A model generated the notes under the pieces. That model was given only the letters and a program-made list of their open reading frames with translations, ran no database searches and had not been told where the DNA came from. This document shows positions 1 to 14,500 of a DNA stretch of 37,804 nucleotides, one piece after another. The stretch spans positions 1 to 37,804 of the IMG/VR virus record IMGVR_UViG_3300016657_000052; one strand, 5' to 3'. Within the stretch, counting starts at the first letter, position 1, and each line of letters opens with the position of its first letter. Source of the stretch: a virus. Its lineage: Duplodnaviria; Caudoviricetes. The translations under genes were made by a program, and so were the position numbers.

Positions 1-896
1 CCACACCGGCAGGTACATCGGCAGTGATATAGAACTTGATGCAGGCCGTATCCAGCAGCAGTGGGTTACCATCTGCACGGAAGCCTTCGTCGACACTACC
101 ACTAAACCGTTTCTTCCCTGAAGAAGTCAGGCGTTTCCCCAACTGGCGATCCGAGTAATCAGCCAATTGACGCAGGCTGGCACTCATGTCTTCTTTATCG
201 CCGTGGTAGAAAATCTCCATGCGTTCCAGTTTCCCAGTAAAGCAGGAAGTCGGTGCTTGAGAGCCCATGACTTTCAGGGTTTCCAAACTCTCCTCATCGA
301 AGAGCTTGTTATCCGAAGTGATAGCATCTTCGATTATACATAGGATATCGCCCTCGGTTAGATCCGCACCTGGCTTAACCATACGGTGAATGTGCTGTTT
401 GAAGTCCACCACTACCGTTTTGATCTTCGTCATTTTGGTGCGAAGCAGCTCTGCAGTCTCTTTCGAAATTGCCGAGGAGTCTTCCAATGTTACCGGTGCT
501 TCCATCAGAACTACGTTGGTCAGTACACCTGCTTTCATTACCACATTGCTGGGGTTAAGCAGATCCTTCTCAAAGAAGCCATCATTGAAAGCCAGTACAT
601 CACCAGCTTTAAACTTCTCACCAACTTGCAGCCCTGTAACTACGGAGTGCGGAATAGTCAGACCACCAGCAGCACCATAGCGACGACCCAGTTCGATACC
701 CTTACGAGTACCGTCAGCATATTCAACGATAATCCCTTCATCGGAGATGGAGATCACTTTACCGTCTTGACGTGCTGTAGTACAGAACAGATCACCAGTA
801 CGATGACCAATCACTTGTTCATACCCAGTACGCACTGCTGCTTGAGTGTAACCTGCACATGGCACAACGTGCCGCTGTTGAATGCCGATAAAATTG
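1..896 (-). CDS. rpoB: Virion RNA polymerase beta subunit (phiKZ gp178-like), exon 3; continues past the window start
   Basis: Not in the ORF track because it has no start codon. Manual translation of the open minus frame gives NFIGIQQRHVVPCAGYTQAAVRTGYE...LEDSSAIS...FYITADVPAGV, matching RNAP beta motifs (TGxE, EDS, lead-in to GDK). C896 completes the GTC (Val) codon split by intron 2. Confidence 0.9.
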
Positions 897-1536
897 CCTA
901 TTGTCCACTTGATCCGTTGTGCAATGCACGCTCTATCAAGCCGGTGCGCTTCCTGGCACCCGCCCACGGCTTTCCCGTGGGAGCAGACTATATCTTCTTC
1001 CCTTAGGAAGCTTCCTGTTTCGCTTTAAAGGCTTTCGCCTACCACTTGGCGCTACGAGCCGACGCTCTAGTCGTTGAACCTTTCCCATGCCTTTCGGTTT
1101 AGGGACTTGGCTGCTATAGGAGTCCTTAGGACTCACGGTTACCCAATCCGCTTCGTTTTTAGACCATCGCGCCCATCCTTTCGGATCACGTTGTGGTGAA
1201 GCAGCTCTAAGGGACTTCCAGCAATTAAAGAAGTTATTCGACTATTTTTTCAAATAGAAGGGGCAATTTGTATAATTGAAAGTATTCGAGTATCGATGTT
1301 TGAAAAAGACAATACTTCGTCTTTGTATTTAACCTGCGTTCCGTCATCAAACATTTTCTGCCCCCGATGTTTTAATCGGTAGTTCAAGGTGGTTGCCAGC
1401 ATACCGAGAGCATCAGCGCATTCTTTAGCACTAGAGTACTCGGTAATGGACCCCGTTTTATTGTCCTTGACCAAAACAGGTTTAACGCGCAACGTATTTA
1501 AGATAGCGAACACTTTACAACAATACAAAAACATTT
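897..1536 (-). mobile_element. Group I self-splicing intron 2 (IA-like, 640 nt) in the vRNAP beta gene
   Basis: Minus-strand core elements: P AATTGCTGGAA (1226-1216), Q AGCAGCCAAG (1115-1106), R TCAACGACTA (1077-1068), S GAAGATATAGTCT (997-985), and P3 CUUCUU/AGGAAG. The 5' exon ends in U (CGGGU) and the intron ends in G (897). IGS GCCC (1264-1261) gives the U.G pair. Splicing restores KRVNFIG in frame. Confidence 0.92.
1250..1534 (-). CDS. Intron-encoded NUMOD1-like HTH DNA-binding mini-protein, probable homing endonuclease remnant without a nuclease domain
   Basis: 94 aa. KPVLVKDNKTGSITEYSSAKECADALG resembles the NUMOD1/IENR1 motif of intron endonucleases. No GIY-YIG or HNH motif is visible. 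Lies in the P1 loop of intron 2. Confidence 0.6.
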   Translation of the reverse strand: MFLYCCKVFAILNTLRVKPVLVKDNKTGSITEYSSAKECADALGMLATTLNYRLKHRGQKMFDDGTQVKYKDEVLSFSNIDTRILSIIQIAPSI

Positions 1537-2981
1537 ACCCGTTTAGGATCGTCTCGATCAGACCCAGGTGAGAGTAGTGCCGAAGTGGACAACAGAGAAG
1601 ATGTTTCAATCTCCGATGGATCTTGTGGTTGACTTACACCACGAATAGACGTAAAGGTCGGGTTAGCAGAAGTGTAGATGTTAATTGCCACATCACCACT
1701 ATCCACAGTCGATTCAGAAATCGTACCCATCTCGTTTTTATGGTAAATACGAGTACTCTTAGTCATGGAGCGACCAGAGCGACCACCTACACCACTATAG
1801 GTTACGGCTTCCACTTCTTTAAGGTTCTGTACCGGGTTGATATCCTCTACTAGCGATACCGATGGATCCTGACTAATTGTCCGCCATACTGCGTGCGGGT
1901 TCAGTTCGATGGATTGGCGCGCGCGGTCTGAGCGACTGTTGTGAGATTTAACAGCAGTCACCAGTTCGCGATAGGCGATGCCAGCGAGTCGTTCGTAACC
2001 TTTGATGCGCATGTACTGCGGATCCATTTCTTCCGGATGGTAATCCAGCAGCAACAGTTCCGAGGCCCGGATCAATAGGCCACGCCAGTCAGTGGGTTCT
2101 TTCATGTCCACCAACAGTTCAAACGTAATTGGATCAACGAACAGCTTATCGACGATATCGAGTTCGCGCAGCTGACGAACACCACCGCCTTTGATACTTT
2201 CCACCACGTTCAGGTAAACGCCAGGCTTATTGAATTCATGAGCACTGAAGTGACGCGTTGCCTCTTCCATGTCATAGAACCCACCCATCACCATAGCGGC
2301 TACACCATCTTCCCGACTAAAGATGTGGGTTTCATCAGCAAAGACTACCGGGAACTCTTCCGGTGCCAATTGCAAACGTTGCCCTGCCGGAACGACACGT
2401 GGTTGTACTTTCAGGATCTGACAAAGTTTGTCGTAGCCGTAGTAGTACGCCAGAATAATGCCAATTGGTAGCTTTTTACCAGAGACTTTCATCTCGGCAA
2501 ATTCCACCGGTCGCTTAGCCAATATGAGCCCAGCCTGTTCTTCAAACGACGGCAATTCTGAAACGATACCATTCGAAACCGAATACAGCCCGCCCAACTT
2601 GTCCATCAGCATCTTATCGCCGTTCTTATTAATAGCGACGACGATAGTGCCATCCTTCTCATGTTCCTTCAGGAACTCAGCACCAAACAAAGTTTCCCTT
2701 GCCGTGTGATCCAGCATCCAAGTCCAGCCATTGATGGTGACCGAACGGAAAGCTTGCGCTAGGACACTGTACAGACGCGGTGCTTTGAACTTGTTATCGA
2801 ACACATTGCTTGGATGGATGTCCACCACATTGGTGTTCTGTGCGTCCAGGCCAGCCGCCATCAGAGCGTTGTTAATCCATGTCGTGTAGTTGGCCGTCCG
2901 CTTATCAGACCGTTTGATAAACATCTTACCATAGTAGCTAGTCAACGCTACAGTGTCAGTATTCGTTTTACGAATGGGTAG
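1537..2981 (-). CDS. rpoB: Virion RNA polymerase beta subunit, exon 2
   Basis: Core of ORF 1515..2990: LPIRK...TSYYGK...GGRSGRSM...GTISESTVDSGDVAIN...DRDDPKRV, which are RNAP beta-like motifs. The annotated MGM start and NVFVLL tail are intron sequence. Confidence 0.9.
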
Positions 2982-3375
2982 CATCCCCATTCAAAATGGA
3001 CCATATCACCACCCTACATTCTTTGCAGAATAATCGGGCGCCTACCGTTTCGGGGTTGATTCACATCAATGCCCTACTCTACTTGCTTTAATCGTTTTAG
3101 AAACGACCACCACATTGGATAATGGTGTCATTACCCCCGTCGCCGGGGTGTAGCTTTCGATGGCCTCTGAACACACCCCATATCCCTTAGGACTTAGAGG
3201 CTTCGTTGCGTCGGTTATGTCTCTCAAGGACGTTTTCACCATGCCTGTTTGGAACATTACCCTACAGGTATTACACTGTATTTCTACGTGTAAGTGGTAG
3301 ACCATGAGATTATAGACGTTTTCCCGCAGTTAGGTAGGTTTTCTTGTACCGTATTACTACGGTACGGGGACCGTT

Positions 3376-3402
3376 ATGGTCAAGGCTACTTATTTAAAAA
3401 GA
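3376..3402. repeat. 27-bp inverted repeat, copy A (pairs with 4834-4860)
   Basis: atggtcaaggctacttatttaaaaaga versus the reverse complement of 4834-4860, atggacaaggctacttatttaaacaga: 25/27 identical. Confidence 0.9.
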
Positions 3403-4869
3403 TTTGAATAGGACTTTAAAGCCCTCAACTACTTTTTTGATCTCAATCTCTAGCTTGCGAATTGGTACATTGCTTGGTATGTTGAAGTGCTTGTATACAT
3501 CTAAGATCGATGAGAAAGCCGTAGCCTTGTCGTTGACAGCACACCAAACTTTATACTTCTTCCGGAGCCGAGAAACCAACGTATTTTCTACAGAACCATC
3601 GCTCAAGTTCAGGTATGTGAGTACGATCAAATCACCGCCATGTTGTTTGACAAGTAATTTTTTCTTTTTGTCTCTTTCCTGAACCTTAACAAAAGCATTG
3701 TGACCACCGAATATGTCCACGGGCTTGTAATGCTGCTGTCCGTTGAACTCGATGTAAATATTGAGTTCAGGTAGATAGAAATCAAATCTGAAAAGATACG
3801 GTTTAATCCGATATTCTCGGATGTAGTTGATGCCGTATTTCTTCAAGAAAATTTCAACAGCCTTTTCGCCCTTTGATTCTTGGCAGAGTTGGCAACCATT
3901 ACCCGAACTGGTGTGGGTGTTTGGTTTCTGCCAGAAAGAACCATGTTTTGGACAAACGATTTCAACTTTGTGTTTGTTGCCATGGTAAACGACTTTACTA
4001 TAGTCGTAACTATCACCATGGATTTGACGAGCATTTCTGATAAACTCTTCCGTAGATAGCTTATTTTCTTCCAAGAAACATTTCTTACACTTACAGCCAG
4101 CTAAATGCGATGCTGCTCTTTGGGTGAAGTCACCATGTTTTGGACAAGTGATCGTAACTTTAGAGGCATTAGTAACATACTCGACTTTACTATAATCGTA
4201 CTTATCTCCATGCGCTATACGTGCTTTGGAGATAAAATCAGCAAGTGATAATCTATCGGCGCCGCTCGAGCAGTTAGGGCAACCACTGCCTTTTTCAGCG
4301 TGGTCGTAAACGCTTTGCCAGAATGATCCATGTACCGGACAACCGATTTCCATCTTGTCGGTTGCATTGCCTACAGTAACTTTACTGTAGTCGTACTTGT
4401 TGTTGTGGATCTTTTTAGCCTTTTCGAGTTGCTTCTGGTTTCTTATCTGTCGAGGTATTTCATAGTCGCATTTAGGACATCCATGTTTGAAAATGAAGTG
4501 TTGTGGCGGACTTGTTACAAAGTCCCCGTGAGCAGGACATGTTATCGTCACATCAACTTCTTTTCTCACATATTTGGTTTTAAGATATCTAAACTTATCA
4601 CCAAACTTGGATCTGGATCTCTGAATGAATTCTTCAGTTGTAAGTGCTCTATTGTTGTCGGATTTGATACGACCACATTCAGGACAACCGCACCCAGTGT
4701 AGTGTGCTGTTGCTTTCTGTGAAAACATGCCGTGTAAAAGACATGTTATCTGGATCCTATCCGTAGTGACAAATGTTTCTGGTATGAGATCGTAGTTGTA
4801 TGTTTCTTGGTTTGCTGGAAACCGTGAAAACAGTCTGTTTAAATAAGTAGCCTTGTCCATTTTCTTCAC
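3394..4869 (-). CDS. Intron-encoded homing endonuclease: five CxxHG..H..CxxC zinc-finger repeats (DUF723/CapR-like) plus a C-terminal Vsr/DUF559-like (EDxHD-type) nuclease
   Basis: Repeats CLLHG, CPAHG, CPVHG, CPKHG and CPKHG are each followed by CxxC, with HGDKYDYSKVEY-type linkers. The C-terminus reads SKGE...FRFDFYLPELNIYIEFNGQQHY...RD. The true start may be ATG 4860 (MDKATYL). Confidence 0.85.
   Translation of the reverse strand: MKKMDKATYLNRLFSRFPANQETYNYDLIPETFVTTDRIQITCLLHGMFSQKATAHYTGCGCPECGRIKSDNNRALTTEEFIQRSRSKFGDKFRYLKTKYVRKEVDVTITCPAHGDFVTSPPQHFIFKHGCPKCDYEIPRQIRNQKQLEKAKKIHNNKYDYSKVTVGNATDKMEIGCPVHGSFWQSVYDHAEKGSGCPNCSSGADRLSLADFISKARIAHGDKYDYSKVEYVTNASKVTITCPKHGDFTQRAASHLAGCKCKKCFLEENKLSTEEFIRNARQIHGDSYDYSKVVYHGNKHKVEIVCPKHGSFWQKPNTHTSSGNGCQLCQESKGEKAVEIFLKKYGINYIREYRIKPYLFRFDFYLPELNIYIEFNGQQHYKPVDIFGGHNAFVKVQERDKKKKLLVKQHGGDLIVLTYLNLSDGSVENTLVSRLRKKYKVWCAVNDKATAFSSILDVYKHFNIPSNVPIRKLEIEIKKVVEGFKVLFKSF
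4834..4860. repeat. 27-bp inverted repeat, copy B (first codons of the endonuclease from ATG 4860)
   Basis: Reverse complement of 3376-3402 with 2 mismatches. Confidence 0.9.
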
Positions 4870-4903
4870 CCCATGCTAACTTCACATAGGATAAGGAATT
4901 TTA

Positions 4904-6835
4904 ATCCCCTCTTTGTTTACGGATACGATATTTCACGCCATTGGCACGGTAGGTGCCGTCTTCCTGCACTGCTGGTAGACGGAATCGAACAGTGGAGGGC
5001 GTACCAATTACTGGATTCAGTCGGATCACGACATCATCGTAACTACCAGTAACATCCTCAACTCGCTCAACGTTGTAGTCGGTAACGGCAATACCTGCCT
5101 TTTGCAAGTTTACCACCATACCAGCCACATCACGATGCAGCACTTTAGTGACGTAATGTTCATCGAAGGTCAATAGTGACGACTTCAGCATCGATTTATC
5201 AGGAACAGTGTTAATGTCCTTAATCATCGGTGTCTGATTAATAACGGTCAGTTCTTTAGGAATGGTGATGTATTCCGCCAGAGACACTTCAGCACCGTTA
5301 TAGTCCGTTACTTTGATCTTCTTGTAGGATTCAGCTAGCGCCTGATACCGTTTGTATTCTGCTGCTGACAAAGAACCTTCGTCTGCCAAACGATCAAGTA
5401 CGGCAATCACACCTTGCTCAGGTGTCTTGATTGCCGACTCTTCCATAACGACATCAAGCTTTTGTGCTGTAACAGAAGCCGTCATTTCAGTGAGCTTCTT
5501 CAGCTCAGCCTCAATCGACTCCTCATCCAGCCCTTTCTTCTCGACGTCCTCAGCCGAATCCTGCTGTTGATCTTTAAGTGAGATCTGGTTCACTACCGTG
5601 GTGGTAGTGGTACCGTCCGTGGAATCCACAGACACGTGGCCAGTTTCAACACGCTCATGTAGATCCTGTACCAGATCAGTAGCATCTTGCGCGATCTCTT
5701 CCGGGTGAGTAGCTACAGTGCCTAGTTCAAATACGCGGATAAAGAACTTCATCAGACGAATTTGAATGTCACGTGGATCCAGACCTTTCTGAATGATCGG
5801 GACATATTTCGGTTCCGGATCAGGAATAGGCAGGTCTTCGTCCTCTAGCCACATTGGAATAGCTAGGTGCTCACCGTTAGGTGTTTTACGCCAGCTATCC
5901 AGTACACCCAGATTCAATACCGTCCAGTACATGCCATTGCGGAAGATCAAGTTGATTTTGTCGTAGTGACCCGTCAACAAAGTGATCATGCTGTCATGGC
6001 GATTCTTACCCAGCCATTTCCAGAGTTCCGCTACCATAAAGCCTTGCGGTCCCGGTACCCGACGAATCAGGCTAGCACCCAGTGCTTCCATACCCACGGC
6101 CAAGGTATCGTTCTCAAACTTAATCACTGCTGATTTGTTTTCGAACAAGACTTCGTGGTTCTCGGTGGCAATCCGATAGAAGGTATTGTCAGACAAACCG
6201 AAAGACTGACCACTTAGGTAGTCTTCCATCCCCAATGCTTCTTTGGTGGACAGTTCTTCTGGCGAAATGACATTGCTGCCAGTCGACTCCATCATGCGCA
6301 GCGTGCCGATATCCGGTAGACGCGCTGGTAGAGTCATCTCCAAGAAGATATTGCGGTCCGTCTGGGTACAGAGTTTGGCAATGGTGGTCAACGTAGTGTG
6401 AAAACCGTTATACCACTTATTGTACTCGGTATAGATGTTGCGGATGTATTTGTAACGCCGCTGCATCAAAGCCATATTGACAACATAAGGTACCAGAGGA
6501 TCTCGTACGGCTTGTTCGAAGCCACGCGAACGACGATACTTCTTATTCTGAATATGGTACTTACGGATGACGTTTTCAATCATCGCGTTGTTAGGGCGAG
6601 GATTCCCGTTCAGTGCCGACAGTTTGATGATGTGTGCCATCATCACCGGACGAGTCACTCGTTTCAAGTAGAGGTCGTCCAAACCCGGCCCGTCCTCCAC
6701 TTCACTGGAGGGCTGATAAATGTACACGCTTTCACGTGGCAACATCAACCTGTCCAGTTTAGTGAAAACAGGATTCTGTAGATGCTCTACTTTTCTAACG
6801 CCAAAGCGTCGGAAAAAGTCAGCGTAGATCAACAT
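4904..6835 (-). CDS. rpoB: Virion RNA polymerase beta subunit (phiKZ gp178-like), exon 1
   Basis: 644 codons ending ...NGVKYRIRKQRGD, the RNAP beta NG..R...Q motif. The TAA that follows is the first 3 nt of intron 1. Starts 6 nt downstream of the beta' gene. Confidence 0.9.
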
Positions 6836-6841
6836 TGCTGA

Positions 6842-8458
6842 TTACTCCACAGTGAGGTTATGGAAAATAAGGGCCAAGGTAGAAACGTCAATACTAGCCA
6901 GTGGTCTGCCGTCTGTACCGATATAGGCTTTCTTACTTGCCATGAATGCACGATTCTCCTCCACTGCGTCATCAGAGTAGACACATGGACCAGAGGCGGT
7001 GTCGCCGTCAAAGTCAGCGTCTAGCAGAGCCAGTCGAGACGAGTGAGGGATCATGCTGTTAACAAAGGCTTCGCCAACGATAGGGAATTGATGAGCAATG
7101 AACTCATCGTTTTGCGGACCCCAATCGTCATCCAGTTCGCGTAGTGCTTTGGCCTTCACCGTTGTCCGTAGGTAAACCAAGGACGGGTAGATAGAACCAG
7201 CACCCGTTACGGGGTAGCGTGTCAGCAACAACGGATACTTACCAACTACTCGGTAGAGGGAGATATACACCAACTCAGCCAAGGTAATTGGGAAGACATT
7301 CTTACGATCAAAGCCATCAGGCAAATCTTCGATATCGTAGAACACCTTAAAATAAGCATCGTCTTTATAAACAAGCGCTAAGTAACGACCATTGATTTCA
7401 ACGGGACGATGTCGAGCACTCTCGTTAGCCAAAGTACTGATGACTTTCTCAATACCTTCATCAGAACCCCAGTAGTCAAAGATCTCAGGCTTGACCCAGA
7501 CTTCTTCACGGCGTAGTGTTTTCTTGTCAATCAGATATACTGGTCGATCAATCGTAACAAACACGTCATGAAGAATACCATTGCGCATGTGGAATTGCGT
7601 AACCGGCAGCAAGTTCTTAGCTGCTTGGTAGATACCGATCTGCGTATGGTTAAAGCCTACTTCACCAGGACCATTGAGTTCTTTGGCATCGTTAAGCATT
7701 GCCGTAATTACGTTACGGGTACCGTTATACGTAGCACGAGTAGCCCACTTACCCATCAACAGCTTGTGCTTACCTTCAACGAGCTTTTCAATGTAGTTGT
7801 AAAGATCATTAAAAGTGCACTGCAAATTGTAGCGAGCACGGTTAATGGCACTGGGGCTCAACTTAACGGCCATATCGGCAATGGCGTTAGAGGTCGATAG
7901 CAGGCGCTTATAGAAACCGTTAATGTCCACTTCCCGAATACGACCATTCTCGTATTCCAGATCACGATAGCCAGCTGGCATAACGACAATCTTGGAAGTC
8001 AACGCCACATCACGATAACGTTCAATCAGCTTGATGGTCTGATCACGCGAAACAGTATCGGTGTCTTGGATATTGATGTCTTTCCAATGCGAGATAAAGA
8101 AATCAAAACCTGTTTCACCTTCTAGCGGACTAGCCCGTTCAAAGTCACGAGTATCGGGATTCCATTTAGCGTACTCGTTACCACTCATGATCTCTTGGTA
8201 AAGAGTCCGCATGCGAATCAAGCGGCGATAGATGATGGGATGGAAAATCTCTACTTTAATATCGATGTAAGAGAAAGCCATCTTGCGACGCTTATCACCT
8301 ACCTTACCGAAGATTTCTGTAGAGTAAAGACCATCAGGATGGAAATTATTGGTAGCCCCTTCTGTGATGTCCAGAGAGCGAACGGGTCGCAAATTCCGAA
8401 GCTTATCAGGCGAAAGTACCAATAGCGTAATATTAAAAGGAATGTCGAGGCGGTTCAT
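6842..8458 (-). CDS. rpoC: Virion RNA polymerase beta' subunit, catalytic part (phiKZ gp180-like)
   Basis: 538 aa with PDGLYSTEIFG, LMGKW...RNVI, TRYP and the catalytic DADFDGD motif. Confidence 0.93.
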   Translation of the reverse strand: MNRLDIPFNITLLVLSPDKLRNLRPVRSLDITEGATNNFHPDGLYSTEIFGKVGDKRRKMAFSYIDIKVEIFHPIIYRRLIRMRTLYQEIMSGNEYAKWNPDTRDFERASPLEGETGFDFFISHWKDINIQDTDTVSRDQTIKLIERYRDVALTSKIVVMPAGYRDLEYENGRIREVDINGFYKRLLSTSNAIADMAVKLSPSAINRARYNLQCTFNDLYNYIEKLVEGKHKLLMGKWATRATYNGTRNVITAMLNDAKELNGPGEVGFNHTQIGIYQAAKNLLPVTQFHMRNGILHDVFVTIDRPVYLIDKKTLRREEVWVKPEIFDYWGSDEGIEKVISTLANESARHRPVEINGRYLALVYKDDAYFKVFYDIEDLPDGFDRKNVFPITLAELVYISLYRVVGKYPLLLTRYPVTGAGSIYPSLVYLRTTVKAKALRELDDDWGPQNDEFIAHQFPIVGEAFVNSMIPHSSRLALLDADFDGDTASGPCVYSDDAVEENRAFMASKKAYIGTDGRPLASIDVSTLALIFHNLTVE

Positions 8459-8518
8459 TGCTAAACCCTATGAACGTAATTGTATACCAGTTTCAATTTA
8501 TACGGGAGCCAAGACAAC

Positions 8519-11500
8519 ATGGCTAAGCAAAAGAAACTTCAAATTGATGACCTGGGTGCTGATGATCTTGATTTTGACATGGGCGATTTCGATTTCGATC
8601 TTAACCCTGAAAAAGATAATCGTAATCCCGCTATGCGTGCTGCATCTGCAGCATTGCTTAGCATCAAAGGTGGTGTCAGCGAACCTAGCTTTATAGCAAA
8701 ACTAGTCAAGAATGCCTTGCCGTCAGAGTTCGGCACAGCACTCGATATGACTGATCAGGCAGCTAGCGGTCTTCGGGATCTATACAATACCGCTGCTACT
8801 GAACTTAAGCCGGTTGTGCGTGATGTAAAGCGCACCACTGAAAAGCTAATGTCGGTAGTTGGCGATAAGCTTCCGGGCCCAGTGACAAAGCGTCTAACGG
8901 AGTGGAGTCGCAGCGAAACTGTAAACTCTTATAAGAAGTTTGATGCTCAGGAAAGTATGATCAATACGACCCTGGCACAGATCTTCAAGACGCAACAAGA
9001 AGTAGAACAGCTCCGGGAAAACGAACACCGTGTAAACGATGCTGTTCGGGATACCATTGAGCTGGGTCGGTTTAAAGCCAACTTCTCTCAACTGAATGAA
9101 ATTCGGATGGGGGTAACAGCGCTTACGGCATACCAACAAAATATTGGTGCTAACTTCCAACGTAAGTCATTGGAACTGCAGTACCGTCAGTATTTTGTTT
9201 TGGCTGAATTGTTGGCCAACACTAAGAACAATAATGAACGCATGCGCGATGAGATGAAGGCACTTATCGAGAATACTGATAAGCCTGAGTTCATTAAGCA
9301 AGAAAATCCAGAGTACCTGAAAATTGCACGTCGCAATCAATTCATGGGTACGATTAAGAAAAGCCTATTCGGTCGTGATGGCGATTTCATTAAGAACCTT
9401 ACTGACGATCTAGTAAAGCGTGGTAAGGAAAAGCTGGGTGAGTTTAAGAACACTGCCTTTGACATGATCGGTGCGGCCGACATGGGTCTTGACCAATACA
9501 AGATGGCACAAGATCTGGGTATGGATCAAGATGTTGACCCATATGCCGTCGGTGGTTCCATGGGCGGGATGCTGTTGTTGGACCGTTATGGTCCTAAGTT
9601 CTCTGCATGGGTAAAGAAGAAGCTGGAAGATAACCCCCAAATCATGAAGGGGGCAAATAAAACAGCTTACATCGCAGCTAACCTGCCACGTCTACTCAAA
9701 GAGTACGCTACATCTGAAACCAAAGACCCACTCAGCTGGAAGGGTAAGATCTTGGGTGGTGCTAAAGAAATCTTGGCAGCACAATTTGGTCGCTCCAGTA
9801 AGATGCAGGTGGACTCAGCAGAGACACTACAAGAAGGTAGTATCTTCACGCGTCAATCGAATCGTACTTTGAATGAAGTGATCCCTGGCTATCTTGCTAG
9901 GATCTTCCGTGAGCTGCAGGTGATGCGTACGGGTAACGATAAGATTGATCTAACTACCTTTGACCACGATGCTGGTCGGTTCAGTAAGTCGGCTGATATG
10001 AAGTCATCGATCATCGGCGGCATGTTTGGTTCATCGCAACGGCAACGTTTGGATGACCAACGTGATAACTTGATCAGCATGATTGACCCGAACGGCAAAA
10101 AGCTGTCAAAAGAAGATCGGGAAGAATTGTTCCGTTTCCTGCTTCGGGACAATATGGACCTGAACCAGATGAGTCGGGAACGTCTGTCCAATAAGAGTAC
10201 CTTTAAGGGCATGGACGCTAAGCAGGCTGAGAAGTTTGCTACCGTCTTTAGCGAACACTTTAGTGACGACGACAGCGGCAAGAAACAGCTGGACTTTAGT
10301 ATACAGGCTAACTCAATTGGCGATGGCTTGACTGTCGACTATGAACGTATTCAAAACCTAATTAACTTGGGCTATGGTTCGTTCCTGGTGGATGCAGGAC
10401 TCATTGATTCTGAAGGTAGTGTCAATGAGAAGGCCATCTTACAGATGTATCTGGATGGCGAAAAAGAGTACGCAGGTGATTACGGTCTTCCTGGGTCGCG
10501 AGGTATGGGCGGTAATGTACGCACTACTGTCACGAATGACATCGTGAGTCACGTGATCATGAATGGTCCGCGCGGTAAACAGAAAAGTCGTCGCAAAGTC
10601 AAGATGAATCGTGGTGCTAATCGCCATACACCTAAGACTGCTGGCGCCGATGCGGTTAATTCATTTGTTCCGCAAACACAAGCATCTCCAGTAGCGCCTC
10701 CACCCAGCGCTCCAGTATTGTACGCTGCCGGCGGTGCTAGCAGCGTCCAAAGCGATGCTCGTAACTTTAAAGACAATAACTGCGAATGCTTCGATGACAT
10801 TGTTAAAGCTATTGAAAAGAATAGTGTCAAAGAAGAGACCATGCAAATCCGCGATATGATCGGTGCGATTGGCATGATGTTGAATCGTGGTATCCGTACG
10901 TATACTGCCGGTGAAGCGGGTGGTGTAGGTGAGGAAGACATTCCTTGGTATGATCAGACGTTGTCTCAATTGTTCCGCAGTGGCGTACGTGGCGGTGCAC
11001 GAGCAATGGGTAAAGCATTCCAGTGGGTGGGTAAGAAACGTCAACAAGTTACTGAGCTGGCTAAAGATGCACTTGGTGCAGCTGGCGCATTAGGCAAGCA
11101 AGGTCTCGAGAAAGCAGTCAAGTTTGGTAAGTTCCTGCGTAAGCGTGGGGCTGATATCATGATTGAAGGTCGTATGTCGGCAATCATGACTGCTGACATG
11201 ATTCGGAATGGCGAATATATCGACGTCAATACTGGCAAGATTATTAAAGACATTACCGATATCACTGGCGAGGTGCGTAACCGGGCCGGTGAGATTATCA
11301 TGACGGCAGAACAAGCCAAACGGGCCTATGTTCGTGGGACGATTGGTGTTAAGCTGCTTCGTGGTTTGACCAAGTTGAAAGACGCTGCCGGTGAAATGGC
11401 AGATCGCGTTAGGGGCGGTGCAGGTATCGCACTGAGTATCGCCCGCCATGGCCTGAGTAAGGGTAAGGAATTGCTCTTTGACGCGCTGGATCGTCCGATT

Positions 11501-14500
11501 GATATTTACGTGAAAGGCGATCTTGAAACCCCAGTAATGACAGCTATTCAGATGCGAGGCGGTAATTATGTCTCGCGGACATCTGGGCGAAAAGTGACTA
11601 AACCATCGATGATTGATGGTGTTATTGAAAACCTAGATGGTGAAGTAGTGCTGTCTGAAGAGCAGATCAAGAAAGGTATTGTCGATCGTAATGGTCGGCC
11701 TATCCGAACCGGTCTTCCCAAGCTTGCCGAGTTGGTAGGTCGTGGTCTGCTTTACATGGGCGGTAAACTGCGCAATGGCCTGAAACGCATGTCTAATGCC
11801 GTGGGTTCTATCTTTGGTGGACTTGGTGATTTCTTTAAAGGTTGGTTTAGTCCTGATGGGATTATCTTCGCTGGCGGTAAGAAAATGCTTAGCGCAGTTG
11901 AAGAGATTCGTGACATCCTGAAAGAACGTCTACCTGAGCATCGTAGGATTCGTAAAGGTAGTGTGGAAGATCAGGAAAATCGCCGGAAGGAAAAGAAGGC
12001 TGAAGAAGAACGTAAGAGTGGCGATAAGTCGGAGACTGCTAAAACAGGTGGTATCCTCGCTGGTCTGAAAGGGCTCTTTAGTCTCAACAAAGATAAGGAA
12101 AAGGATGATGAAGATGAAGAAGATGGTGATAGCAAGTTTTCTATACTTGGCGACGCACTTGACTACCTTGGCGACACGAAAATCGGGCGTGGTGCTAGGA
12201 AGCTTGGTCGAGGTGCCAAGGCCGTTGCAAAAGGCGGGCTAAAAGCCGGTAAGTATGCGGGTAAGAGTGTACTTGGCGCTGGTAAGATGGGTGTCAAAGG
12301 TGCCGTGGGTGCTGGTAAGATGGGTCTTGGTCTAGCCAGTAAAGTCGGACTGGGTGCAGGGGCAAAACTTCTAGGTGGTGCAGGCGCTGCGTATGGTGCT
12401 TACGAAACCTACAATGATATCCGTGAAGGCAATTACGGTGATGCTGTCATTGATGGTGGTTTGACCCTGGCTGGTTTGGGTATGACTGGTCTAACCCTAG
12501 GTGGCCTTTCGGCTACCGGTATCATGGGTGGCGTGGCTGCAGGTATTGGCGCAGCATTGAGCGCACCTGTTCTATTAGGTGCGGCTGCCGTAGCTGCAGT
12601 TGGCTATGGTGGTTACAAGCTCTATAAGAACTTCTCCAATAAGCTAGGTTTGTTTGACAAACTTCGCTATGCTCAATACGGTTTCCTACCGGATGAGAAC
12701 GAGTACTATGCTCGTATTCGGAAATTGGAAGATGCTTGTTATGCGTCACTGGATGTGGATGGTGAACGTGCAGCCATTACCGAGAAGAACCTGAAGATTA
12801 AGGATATCGCCGATAGCTTTAATGTGGACTTGAATGATGAGAAACAAGTTACTCAATTCATCGACTGGTTCCGTAAACGCTTTAAGCCAGTATTCTTGAC
12901 TCACGTCACTGCATTGCTGAAGATTAGGCCGGAAGTAAAACTTACTGAAGTTGAAAGTAAGCTAACGCCGACTGAACAACTGAAGTACTTGCAGTTGGTG
13001 CGTTTCGGTGAAGGTCCGTACAGCTACCTCGTACCTCCTACTCCTGACATGAAAGAACTCAAGGCCAATGGTAAAACAGTGGAAGCTGTTTACCAAGAAA
13101 TTCAGGCAGAGCTTAAGAAGCGTCAGGATAAAGAAGGCAAAAAAGAAGTCGGTGCTCCGGCAAGCGCTGCGCCTGCTAAGGCGGCAGCGGCTGGTGCAGC
13201 GGCTGGGGCTGCTACGGTAGCAGCTAAGAAACCACCCTTGGCAAATACCACTCTTGCCGACACACTCAATGCCCAAACTGGTAAAGGCAGCAATGACTAC
13301 AGCACTATTGGTGCAGATGGCTTTAAAGCTACGAGTGCCTTGCTGGTAGTAGCTGGTAGTGCAGAGCCATTGGTCCAAACTGCTAATGGTCGAATTGATG
13401 CGCTGACCGCCATTCGTTTCAAAGCGTATGGTCTCATTGAAATGGAAGCCACGAAGATTCAAGCGTTGGCTGCTTTGGAAAATGAGGTACAAAAGTCAGT
13501 TAAGCTTAACTCGGCTAAGAAAGCAGAATGGTCTGGTGTAGGTGAAGAAATCGCCATGAAGATGGCGACTAGCTTTGGGGTAGACGTTACCAATAAGGCT
13601 AAGTTGGGTATGTGGTCTCGCTGGTTGCAACTGCGTTTCCTGCCTACATATTTGAACTTTGTCACACTCGTATCTTCACTGACCAATAAGTTGGATCCTG
13701 TTATCGGCACCAAAGGTATGAAAGCCGAGAATATGGTAAGCGTGGCAATGGGTATCATTGCAACTACCAACGGTCAAGGCACGCCTGTATGGGCAGTGTC
13801 GTTTAGTCCATGGCCTGGTTATACCCTTAACAAGACCATCTCGTCGACTGATGAAAACCTAAGCGGTTTGAAAAAGCAGATGAGTTCTGAGACGAAGACC
13901 GAAGAGAAGAGTAAGACAGGTAATGCCAAGGACGATCAAAAGTCGAAATTGGAAGGTACCGGTGGGGGTTCGGCTGAAGAGAAGAAAGAGCTGTCTATAA
14001 TGGACCGCGTCTCGAATGGTCTTAAGTCTGGTTGGGATGCAGTCAAGTCTGGTATTAGTAAAGCCGGTGATATGGTAAGCAATGCCGCTAGTGCAGTTAA
14101 AGATGGAGTAACTAGCGCAGGCAAAGCTGTATTGACAGAGTACTCTAATATCACGGCACCAAATGGTGCTGGTGCAGCTGCTATCAAAGCGTTCCTTGAG
14201 AATTTCGCACCAAAAACTAAAGGACCGATTAAACCAACTAGAGCTGATAGAAACAATAACCCTGGTAACGTCATCTCTAATAAATGGACAGCCGGGCTAC
14301 CTGGTTACAAAGGTAGCGACGGTCGTTTTGCTATTTTTGATACACCAGAACATGGCTTCGATGCGCAGGTGAAAGTTCTTACCGGTTACCTTAAAAAGGG
14401 TATTAATACACTTCGTACGATTATTTCGAAGTACGCGCCGGCGTTTGAGAACGATACATCAGGTTATATCAATGGTGTTGCTAAAAAGATTGGTATTGGG

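Follow-up and report, generated by a model that had tools for sequence, protein, structure and literature searches.

A virion RNA polymerase beta gene of a phiKZ-like jumbo phage, carried on the 37.8-kb fragment analysed here (IMG/VR record IMGVR_UViG_3300016657_000052, positions 1 to 37,804; hereafter the window), is interrupted by a group I intron whose P1 loop contains the gene of a putative homing endonuclease. We found that the first nine codons of this gene are complementary to a stretch around its stop codon, next to the internal guide sequence (IGS) of the ribozyme, and that the resulting long-range stem is conserved among introns at the same site. We consider it reasonably probable that this stem works as a latch, which likely closes the large loop so that P1 can form and is predicted to bury the nuclease start codon, and that splicing and nuclease translation are divided between classes of RNA. 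The features involved are:

4834..4860, minus strand: 5′ arm of the long-range stem, endonuclease codons 1-9 (inverted-repeat search, duplex energy, covariation)
3376..3402, minus strand: 3′ arm of the long-range stem, the last two codons plus stop (3402-3394) and 18 non-coding nt (inverted-repeat search)
3394..4860, minus strand: 488-aa putative homing endonuclease (PF05265, E 1e-15; phrog_559/681)
4904..4909, minus strand: 5′ strand of P1, exon end GGGGAU (6/6 pairs with the IGS; 5′ splice site after U4904)
3366..3371, minus strand: internal guide sequence GUCCCC (covaries with the exon end; P3 motif 28-32 nt further on)

The two arms form an inverted repeat of 27 nt (3376-3402 with 4834-4860) that is 93% complementary, with 25/27 positions paired and two mismatches within the arms (A.A and C.U). 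When the 25 inverted repeats of greatest length in positions 1-12000 of the window were listed, no other pair both exceeded 90% and was longer than 16 nt. The arm duplex has an energy of -32.5 kcal/mol (z -7.3), and none of 200 dinucleotide shuffles was as low, which shows that the start/stop complementarity described in an earlier note on this DNA is real. Among the 25 open reading frames (ORFs) of at least 140 aa in the window, the endonuclease ORF alone showed start/stop complementarity below z -3. The earlier note had the stem written into the first and last codons of the gene; this is correct for the 5′ arm (codons 1-9) but not for the 3′ arm, which is mostly non-coding in the window (9 of 27 nt inside the ORF, 18 nt outside), wholly so in several relatives, and ends 4 nt from the IGS.

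Relatives were gathered with a 21-base core pattern, which returned 45 matches in viral and 59 in metagenome sequences; counting the earlier loci and the window, the pattern is present in 114 loci, 77 of them distinct. After removal of 29 loci at other sites or with no polymerase exon match, four without a matched exon 1 and two near-duplicates, the analysed set comprised 42 distinct introns at this site in which exon end and IGS were both present. In 24 of the 42, the loop measures 942-1,566 nt and contains a related nuclease gene. Over these 24 nuclease-bearing introns, the mean duplex energy was -24.1 kcal/mol with the intron's own partner compared to -11.8 kcal/mol with swapped partners, so the covariation of the two arms that the earlier note had called for is present. 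With automatically chosen starts, 18/24 stems were equalled by at most 10 of 200 shuffles, and this rose to 21/24 when four starts were re-picked by eye and the tested interval was shifted; at least two bases of the AUG are paired in 21/24. Eight stems, chosen after the energies had been seen, fall below -30 kcal/mol, and all eight belong to one 11-member clade of a quick nuclease tree that excludes L028. A gapped pairing register was used for these eight, as the ungapped one misaligned members with bulges. At least two types of Watson-Crick pair occur at 21/30 positions, third codon positions included, and positions 4-24 hold 153 Watson-Crick pairs, 6 G.U pairs and 9 unpaired positions out of 168, while mean identity among the eight is 63% in one arm and 50% in the other. 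In six of these eight, a set that includes the window, none of the 27 partner bases falls within the ORF, which suggests that a dedicated non-coding stretch tracks changes in the first codons. Taken together, these comparisons indicate that the stem is conserved and covaries despite sequence change, and the complementary arms are most likely functional. One same-site nuclease (L028 3736-4596) has fewer repeats, a premature stop at codon 19 of the original frame and a weakened stem.

As a negative control, we used nuclease relatives that stand free of the intron. From 50 loci with relatives of the nuclease, 45 were tested (five apparent duplicates were left out), giving 40 complete distinct ORFs, none of which is followed by the core motif. 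Their start/stop regions had a mean z of +0.12 and a best energy of -17.6 kcal/mol, so that 0/40 reached -18 kcal/mol; a single ORF fell below z -3 (z -3.6), at only -9.3 kcal/mol. The earlier note had suggested looking for such complementarity in other endonuclease genes of this family, and none comparable was seen in these 40, which suggests that the stem belongs to the intron setting and not to the nuclease family.

Successive segments of phrog_3148, a profile of the virion RNA polymerase beta subunit (positions 1-574, 575-1056 and 1055-1351), are matched by three ORFs on the minus strand, and the beta gene is thus split twice. The parts at the first split, besides those given above, are:

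4904..6835, minus strand: exon 1, virion RNA polymerase beta (phiKZ gp178-like), end ...RKQRGD (phrog_3148 1-574, E 2e-121)
2982..4903, minus strand: group I intron 1, 1,922 nt (Rfam RF00028, E 2.8e-9, 43.6 bits)
1537..2981, minus strand: exon 2, virion RNA polymerase beta, start LPIRK (phrog_3148 575-1056, E 2e-181)
3346..3365, minus strand: P2 hairpin with GUAA tetraloop (sequence; Rfam alignment)
2982..3345, minus strand: ribozyme core P3-P9 (Rfam alignment and direct reading of the sequence)
3338-3333 / 3046-3041, minus strand: P3 strands (part of the core)
3167-3161 / 3003-2998, minus strand: P7, with bulged A and G-C site (part of the core)

Removal of the intron joins RKQRGD to LPIRK, and this D|L junction agrees with intron-less alleles: of 39 related viral loci, 31 have exon 1 and exon 2 in one piece, seven have an interruption at this same position and one is unclear. 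An in-frame UAA forms intron bases 1-3 (4903-4901), and the terminal G is G2982, directly before exon 2 restores the reading frame. The RF00028 score of 43.6 bits, from an alignment with two large insertions, is below the gathering score of 50, which is a curation cut-off and not a mechanistic feature; at the gathering threshold, Rfam gave zero matches in the window. The match runs over the full length of the model and comprises core P3-P7 with the P, Q, R and S elements, the G-binding pair and the terminal G; P4-P6, a large P7 insertion, P8 and P9 are present as well, and the 5′ splice site has the U.G pair (U4904.G3371). From its sequence, the element that splits the beta gene is a group I intron of the self-splicing type. 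No RNA run was listed as a carrier among the public sequencing runs; in four DNA runs, examined as contigs with thin cover, neither an arm variant nor a joint spanning the intron was seen. At the other end of the intron, its last bases and the start of exon 2 can form a 7-bp hairpin across the 3′ splice site (2994-2972, minus strand), and a similar pairing is visible by eye in several relatives. Intron 1 ends in the same hexamer as exon 1, and a classical P10 beside the IGS is not evident in it.

The P1 loop between the exon hexamer and the IGS is 1,532 nt long and contains the 488-aa ORF. Support for so distant a partner, as the earlier note had placed it, comes from covariation: in 41/42 same-site introns the exon hexamer, of which there are 10 different versions, pairs 6/6 with a G-initiated hexamer, located by search of a 55-base window. 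The IGS lies 28-32 nt before the P3 motif in 39/42 introns and 9 nt before it in the three that have no P2. A local hairpin (4910-4904 / 4899-4893) was rejected as P1, since it would place U-A and not U.G at the splice site and has a probability of 0 in the full precursor.

We next consider the predicted folding of the RNA. In the full 2,018-nt precursor, the predicted probability was 0.96-0.99 for P1 and 0.82-1.0 for the stem. When the 3′ arm was scrambled in three trials, the predicted P1 probability was 0.42, 0.02 and 0.00, and that of a local decoy hairpin over the splice site rose from 0 to 0.23-0.41. The collapse of P1 upon scrambling, together with the covariation, makes it likely that the stem closes the 1.5-kb loop so that the distant IGS can pair with the 5′ exon, as the earlier note had proposed. 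Its further proposal that the stem buries the AUG agrees with the predicted cost of opening a ribosome footprint at the start, which with the 3′ arm present is 32.8 kcal/mol in the precursor, 32.0 kcal/mol in an RNA starting at intron base 1 and 25.5 kcal/mol in an RNA with G4885 as its first base. If the RNA ends at 4300, ahead of the 3′ arm, the corresponding values are 12.6, 13.5 and 7.4 kcal/mol (precursor, excised-type and TATG-start). Since both arms lie inside the intron, the start region costs about the same to open before and after excision (32.8 vs 32.0 kcal/mol), which suggests that splicing would not free the AUG, but timing would. A ribosome at the start would need to open the stem, but the earlier note's reading of splicing and nuclease translation as mutually exclusive conformations of a switch is not supported as stated, as excision gives no release for translation.

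The history of the loop fits a role of the stem in closing it. The loops of the other 18 of the 42 introns are short (13-317 nt), and in five of these (L121, L156, L159, L169 and L177) a nuclease-like N-terminus scores above the 99th percentile of shuffles; such remnants often form a hairpin with the old 3′ arm. L121 is 94% identical to L187 over the first 128 nt and 98% over the last 44 nt, L169 matches L154 over 74 and 133 nt with a core that is 99.7% identical, and L096, whose core is 98% identical to that of L187, has kept only 18 and 14 nt of the loop ends. As judged from these alignments, the gene is deleted from the interior of the loop, and the stem can persist for a while and then goes, as would be expected if it serves to close a large loop.

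The leader between the splice site and the AUG holds two further features, which the earlier note had overlooked and which emerged from leader folds and motif counts:

4862..4898, minus strand: local hairpin P1a over the Shine-Dalgarno (SD)-like GGGGUG at 4872-4867 (leader fold -14.6 kcal/mol)
4885..4888, minus strand: TATG within the P1a 5′ arm, a candidate late promoter of the phiKZ type with G4885 as +1, 25 nt before the AUG

The leader hairpin was predicted in 22/22 leaders folded, and the predicted probability that the SD-like sequence is unpaired in the precursor is 0.01; P1a is thus predicted to hide this sequence on long transcripts. The late promoter motif of phiKZ is described as TATG with G as +1, necessary but not sufficient (PMC4666361). 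Unanchored, TATG occurs in 15/22 leaders compared to 7.25 in shuffles, and with its G at AUG-23 to -34, a distance window picked after the unanchored count, in 14/23 leaders compared to 2.5 in shuffles. At the same distance it is found upstream of 3/25 other ORFs of the window, a count that does not show whether the phage uses TATG. A cryptic IGS-complementary cyclisation site that would free the ORF from the excised intron was looked for and not enriched (leader, 4/24 vs 1.9 shuffled, with 33/300 shuffles as high; just before the IGS, 1/24). By eye, the leaders of later-site nucleases (L010 4849-4909, L031 2901-2961 and L199, PhiPA3 gp210) also have a local hairpin over GGAG, which in L031 contains TATG.

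Promoter choice and timing, not a two-state switch, are likely to decide translation, and we propose the following sequence of events. On the polymerase precursor, which starts upstream, ribosomes would halt at the UAA of intron bases 1-3, and P1a would conceal the SD-like sequence of the nuclease until the 3′ arm is transcribed. The stem would then latch, P1 would outcompete the local decoy hairpin and the intron would splice, with the excised intron remaining latched. Most of the nuclease would be translated from another class of RNA, whose start is the TATG within P1a. Such an RNA would have no 5′ exon and so could not splice, would be free of most of the 5′ arm of P1a, and would have to load ribosomes before the 3′ arm can pair. 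Splicing and translation would thus be kept apart by promoter choice and timing, in the manner of T4 introns, and the stem would act as a second lock.

It seems doubtful to us that the stem does no more than assemble P1, with its overlap of the AUG incidental because the ORF starts near the splice site, and with the nuclease made by leak or from processed RNA. Stem energy does become stronger with longer loops (Spearman -0.61, n=24; kinship is a confounder), no such stem occurs in introns whose loops measure 13-32 nt (L004, L096, L161 and L192), the long closing stems of phiKZ gp72 and gp56 lie mainly upstream of the AUG, and published phiKZ transcription units coincide with excised introns bearing the whole ORF. 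However, in most members the stem starts at the AUG or a few bases from it in very different sequences, and its 25-33 bp exceed what the weaker relatives use.

A single RNA acting as the switch is decidedly unlikely. Here the precursor would toggle between a latched, splicing form and an open, translated one, and ribosomes leaving exon 1 would re-initiate 43 nt on and hold the stem open. The position of the AUG inside the stem in 21/24 introns, the predicted loss of P1 upon arm scrambling and the exon 1 stop lying 43 nt before the AUG are all consistent with this, and early nuclease translation is described as impairing splicing in T4 (PMC2988022). In contrast, an opening cost of about 32 kcal/mol with or without the exon makes an equilibrium toggle unlikely, the SD-like sequence is also hidden by P1a, and the conserved TATG gives an alternative route to the nuclease.

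Several results weigh against the latch with divided RNA classes. The folding was computed at equilibrium, with no tertiary contacts and with only three scrambles. By one test or another, the stem is weak or not significant in 3-6 of the 24 relatives (depending on the test, L001, L002, L028, L094, L098, L112 and L152), which suggests that a near-perfect stem is not required, and the eight strongest stems, picked post hoc, are confined to a single clade. The pair registers were fitted by aligning the arms, so that the pair counts lean towards pairing. Over all 24 introns, the mismatches showed no excess of G.U over A.C (48 vs 44, p 0.75), and only in 11/24 was the sense strand more stable than the antisense strand; selection on RNA rather than DNA is thus not demonstrated by these two tests. 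For three intron nucleases of phiKZ, the published start-site rows returned place the starts at intron base 1 or upstream, with no separate internal promoter (PMC10914365). The nulls on G.U and strand, along with the high Watson-Crick share (153 Watson-Crick, 6 G.U of 168) and the deletions in relatives that take the loop interior and spare the arms, would suit arms homogenised as DNA by template switching or serving as the ends of a mobile cassette, the latter an idea of the earlier note, with RNA pairing a by-product; this is highly improbable, since none of the 40 free-standing relatives has a comparable stem, the 3′ arm is near-fixed in place just before the IGS, the arm sequences are not conserved (63% and 50% identity among the eight strongest) as transposase-bound ends would be, and the nuclease is the only long ORF in the loop, with no transposase, although template switching may still help to perfect arms under RNA-level selection.

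T4 is not known to build a phage nucleus. Nucleus-forming phages are described as strictly uncoupling transcription from translation, with reported shell pores of about 1.4 nm (PMC12908238), and strict uncoupling makes it hard to picture ribosomes loading before the latch closes, a further point against the proposed timing. Chimallin was found in 6/9 intron-bearing records, the window's own 37.8-kb fragment not being among those searched; it was not found in two complete Vibrio phage genomes (first look only) or in one contig that is 58% complete. We infer that the phage of the window builds a nucleus. One of three things would then hold: nuclease production is very low, the stem is opened by a helicase or a nuclease, or the RNA meets ribosomes during export. 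It is possible, but we think rather unlikely, that the stem is a kinetic latch reporting the exit of mRNA: late RNA would be threaded unfolded and 5′-first through the shell and loaded with ribosomes before the 3′ arm follows, while the precursor would latch and splice inside. If so, export timing would let the intron determine which of its RNAs are spliced and which are translated, its non-coding arm would evolve as a tracking antisense copy of the first nine codons, and a start codon lock of about 25-30 kcal/mol would be usable only through 5′-first threaded export. For nucleus-forming phages, the puzzle is how ribosomes ever use an AUG held in a 25-bp stem where transcription is kept apart from translation, and the latch could act as a built-in reporter of mRNA export from the phage nucleus.

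The ORF itself is, from its sequence, a putative EDxHD (Vsr-like) homing endonuclease with repeated DNA-binding modules. Its N-terminal part has five zinc-finger-like CxxHG/CxxC repeats of DUF723, which is described as a module of homing endonucleases in phages (PMC10448857), and its C-terminus is a Vsr-like domain of the EDxHD type, a pattern described for I-Bth0305I (PMC3239194). E332, D360, N373, H377 and D397 align to E170, D196, N208, H213 and D222 of I-Bth0305I; the pairwise alignment is not significant alone (E 4.1), and a profile of 19 family members matches I-Bth0305I with E 4e-5 in a one-sequence search. A phmmer search of the nuclease domain against PDB gave zero matches. The intron-less alleles (31/39 loci) are candidate targets for the predicted nuclease. 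As with PhiPA3 gp210, whose site in this essential gene is another one, the nuclease is a candidate weapon in phage competition.

The same-site intron also occurs in the cultured Vibrio phages vB_VmeM-Yong XC31 (L001 2846-3934) and vB_pir03 (L002 2983-4071), both without P2, with comparatively weak stems and with no clear TATG in their leaders. Each of these phages has in addition an upstream intron with an HNH-type ORF ahead of the core; their feature tables list no intron, and the vB_VmeM-Yong XC31 nuclease is annotated from an internal start. The beta gene of the window contains a second group I intron (897-1536, minus strand; RF00028 E 3e-10; junction RV|NFI), a few codons after the PhiPA3 gp210 site. 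The P1 loop of this second intron contains the degenerate remnant of an ORF (1534-1253) and, by prediction, a long-range stem of about 25 bp with interruptions. The core motif is found at other sites in 29 distinct loci (L092, L093, L099, L101, L102 and others), and several of these cores, directly after an ORF of roughly 490 aa and 2.4 kb ahead of the beta exon, probably mark the gene of the neighbouring polymerase subunit.

Among known systems, the chimallivirus RNA polymerase genes offer introns with a similar arrangement: in PhiPA3 gp210 and phiKZ gp56, gp72 and gp179 the ORF is described upstream of the core (PMC11620839, PMC10914365), and the PhiPA3 gp210 intron lies in the same gene as here, at a later site (PMC11620839). 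PhiPA3 and 201phi2-1 are uninterrupted at the present site and split about 480 codons later, and a spliced intron is reported in the same gene of 201phi2-1 (PMC11512511). Unlike here, the nucleases of the phiKZ and PhiPA3 introns are described as HNH enzymes at other sites, and their stems are shorter or not anchored at the AUG; predicted closing stems had z -4.5 for phiKZ gp72, z -1.7 for PhiPA3 gp210 (an 11-bp stem just after the AUG) and z -1.2 for phiKZ gp56, in a wide-window scan that dilutes z. Three phiKZ units (NC_004629, 49168-50539, 64454-65671 and 187788-186346) coincide exactly with the gp56, gp72 and gp179 introns, from first base to terminal G, and the joined exons read PN|ADFDGDQ, HGG|KGVIC and GAD|FDGD. 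These "transcription units", listed in the supplement of a paper that reports no phiKZ splicing (PMC10914365), are likely GTP-capped excised introns. At phiKZ 50194-50199 (L197 5194-5199), the mapped RNA 3′ end T026 follows CCCAAU, which is complementary to GUUGGG, the guide of the gp56 intron, at a point 6 nt short of where the gp56 stop codon ends; this end is possibly a ribozyme cleavage that separates the nuclease mRNA from the core.

The T4 td, nrdB and nrdD introns (I-TevI, I-TevII, I-TevIII) share more of the proposed regulation. According to the cited accounts, a hairpin conceals the ribosome-binding site (RBS) of the nuclease on long transcripts, and a late promoter, which the candidate TATG would match here, is placed so that the late RNA cannot make the hairpin; an in-frame stop follows the 5′ splice site, ORF ends double as intron structure, as here, and loss of the hairpin impairs splicing (PMC2988022, PMC3073962). 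They differ in that I-TevI lies in the P6 loop with its 3′ end overlapping the core, and the accessible text of these papers describes no long-range stem over the start codon. The recA introns of Bacillus phage 0305phi8-36 (I-Bth0305I) and B. cereus likewise pair a Vsr-like/EDxHD nuclease with a group I intron of a protein gene (PMC2677866, PMC3239194). Their ORF is placed in the P1 loop by PMC2677866 and in P5 by PMC3239194, with a hairpin upstream of the ORF as here; unlike here, they are described with NUMOD repeats, compared to five DUF723 repeats, and in a different host gene, and I-Bth0305I showed no significant start/stop stem (-15.9 kcal/mol, z +0.6). Nuclear S1389 group I introns with His-Cys genes also carry the nuclease gene as an extension of P1, but are described in eukaryotic rRNA, with another nuclease family and no Shine-Dalgarno control (PMC8395846).

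ORFs in group I intron loops have been published generally (PMC3984707, PMC11878797), and the literature searched, mostly openly readable full texts, yielded no description of this insertion site, of an AUG-anchored long-range stem or of the remnants. The 42 introns at one site form a natural series on how a ribozyme tolerates a gene of 1.2-1.6 kb in its splice-site helix, and on the likely silencing and loss of that gene, and may give a design rule for large cargo in P1 of group I introns. The elements of the layout, namely the nuclease in P1, the closing stem, the RBS hairpin and the candidate late promoter, are each of a kind known from other systems. What is new is the near-perfect stem anchored at the AUG, with a non-coding arm that tracks the coding one, together with the series of gene losses and the conflict with uncoupled expression.

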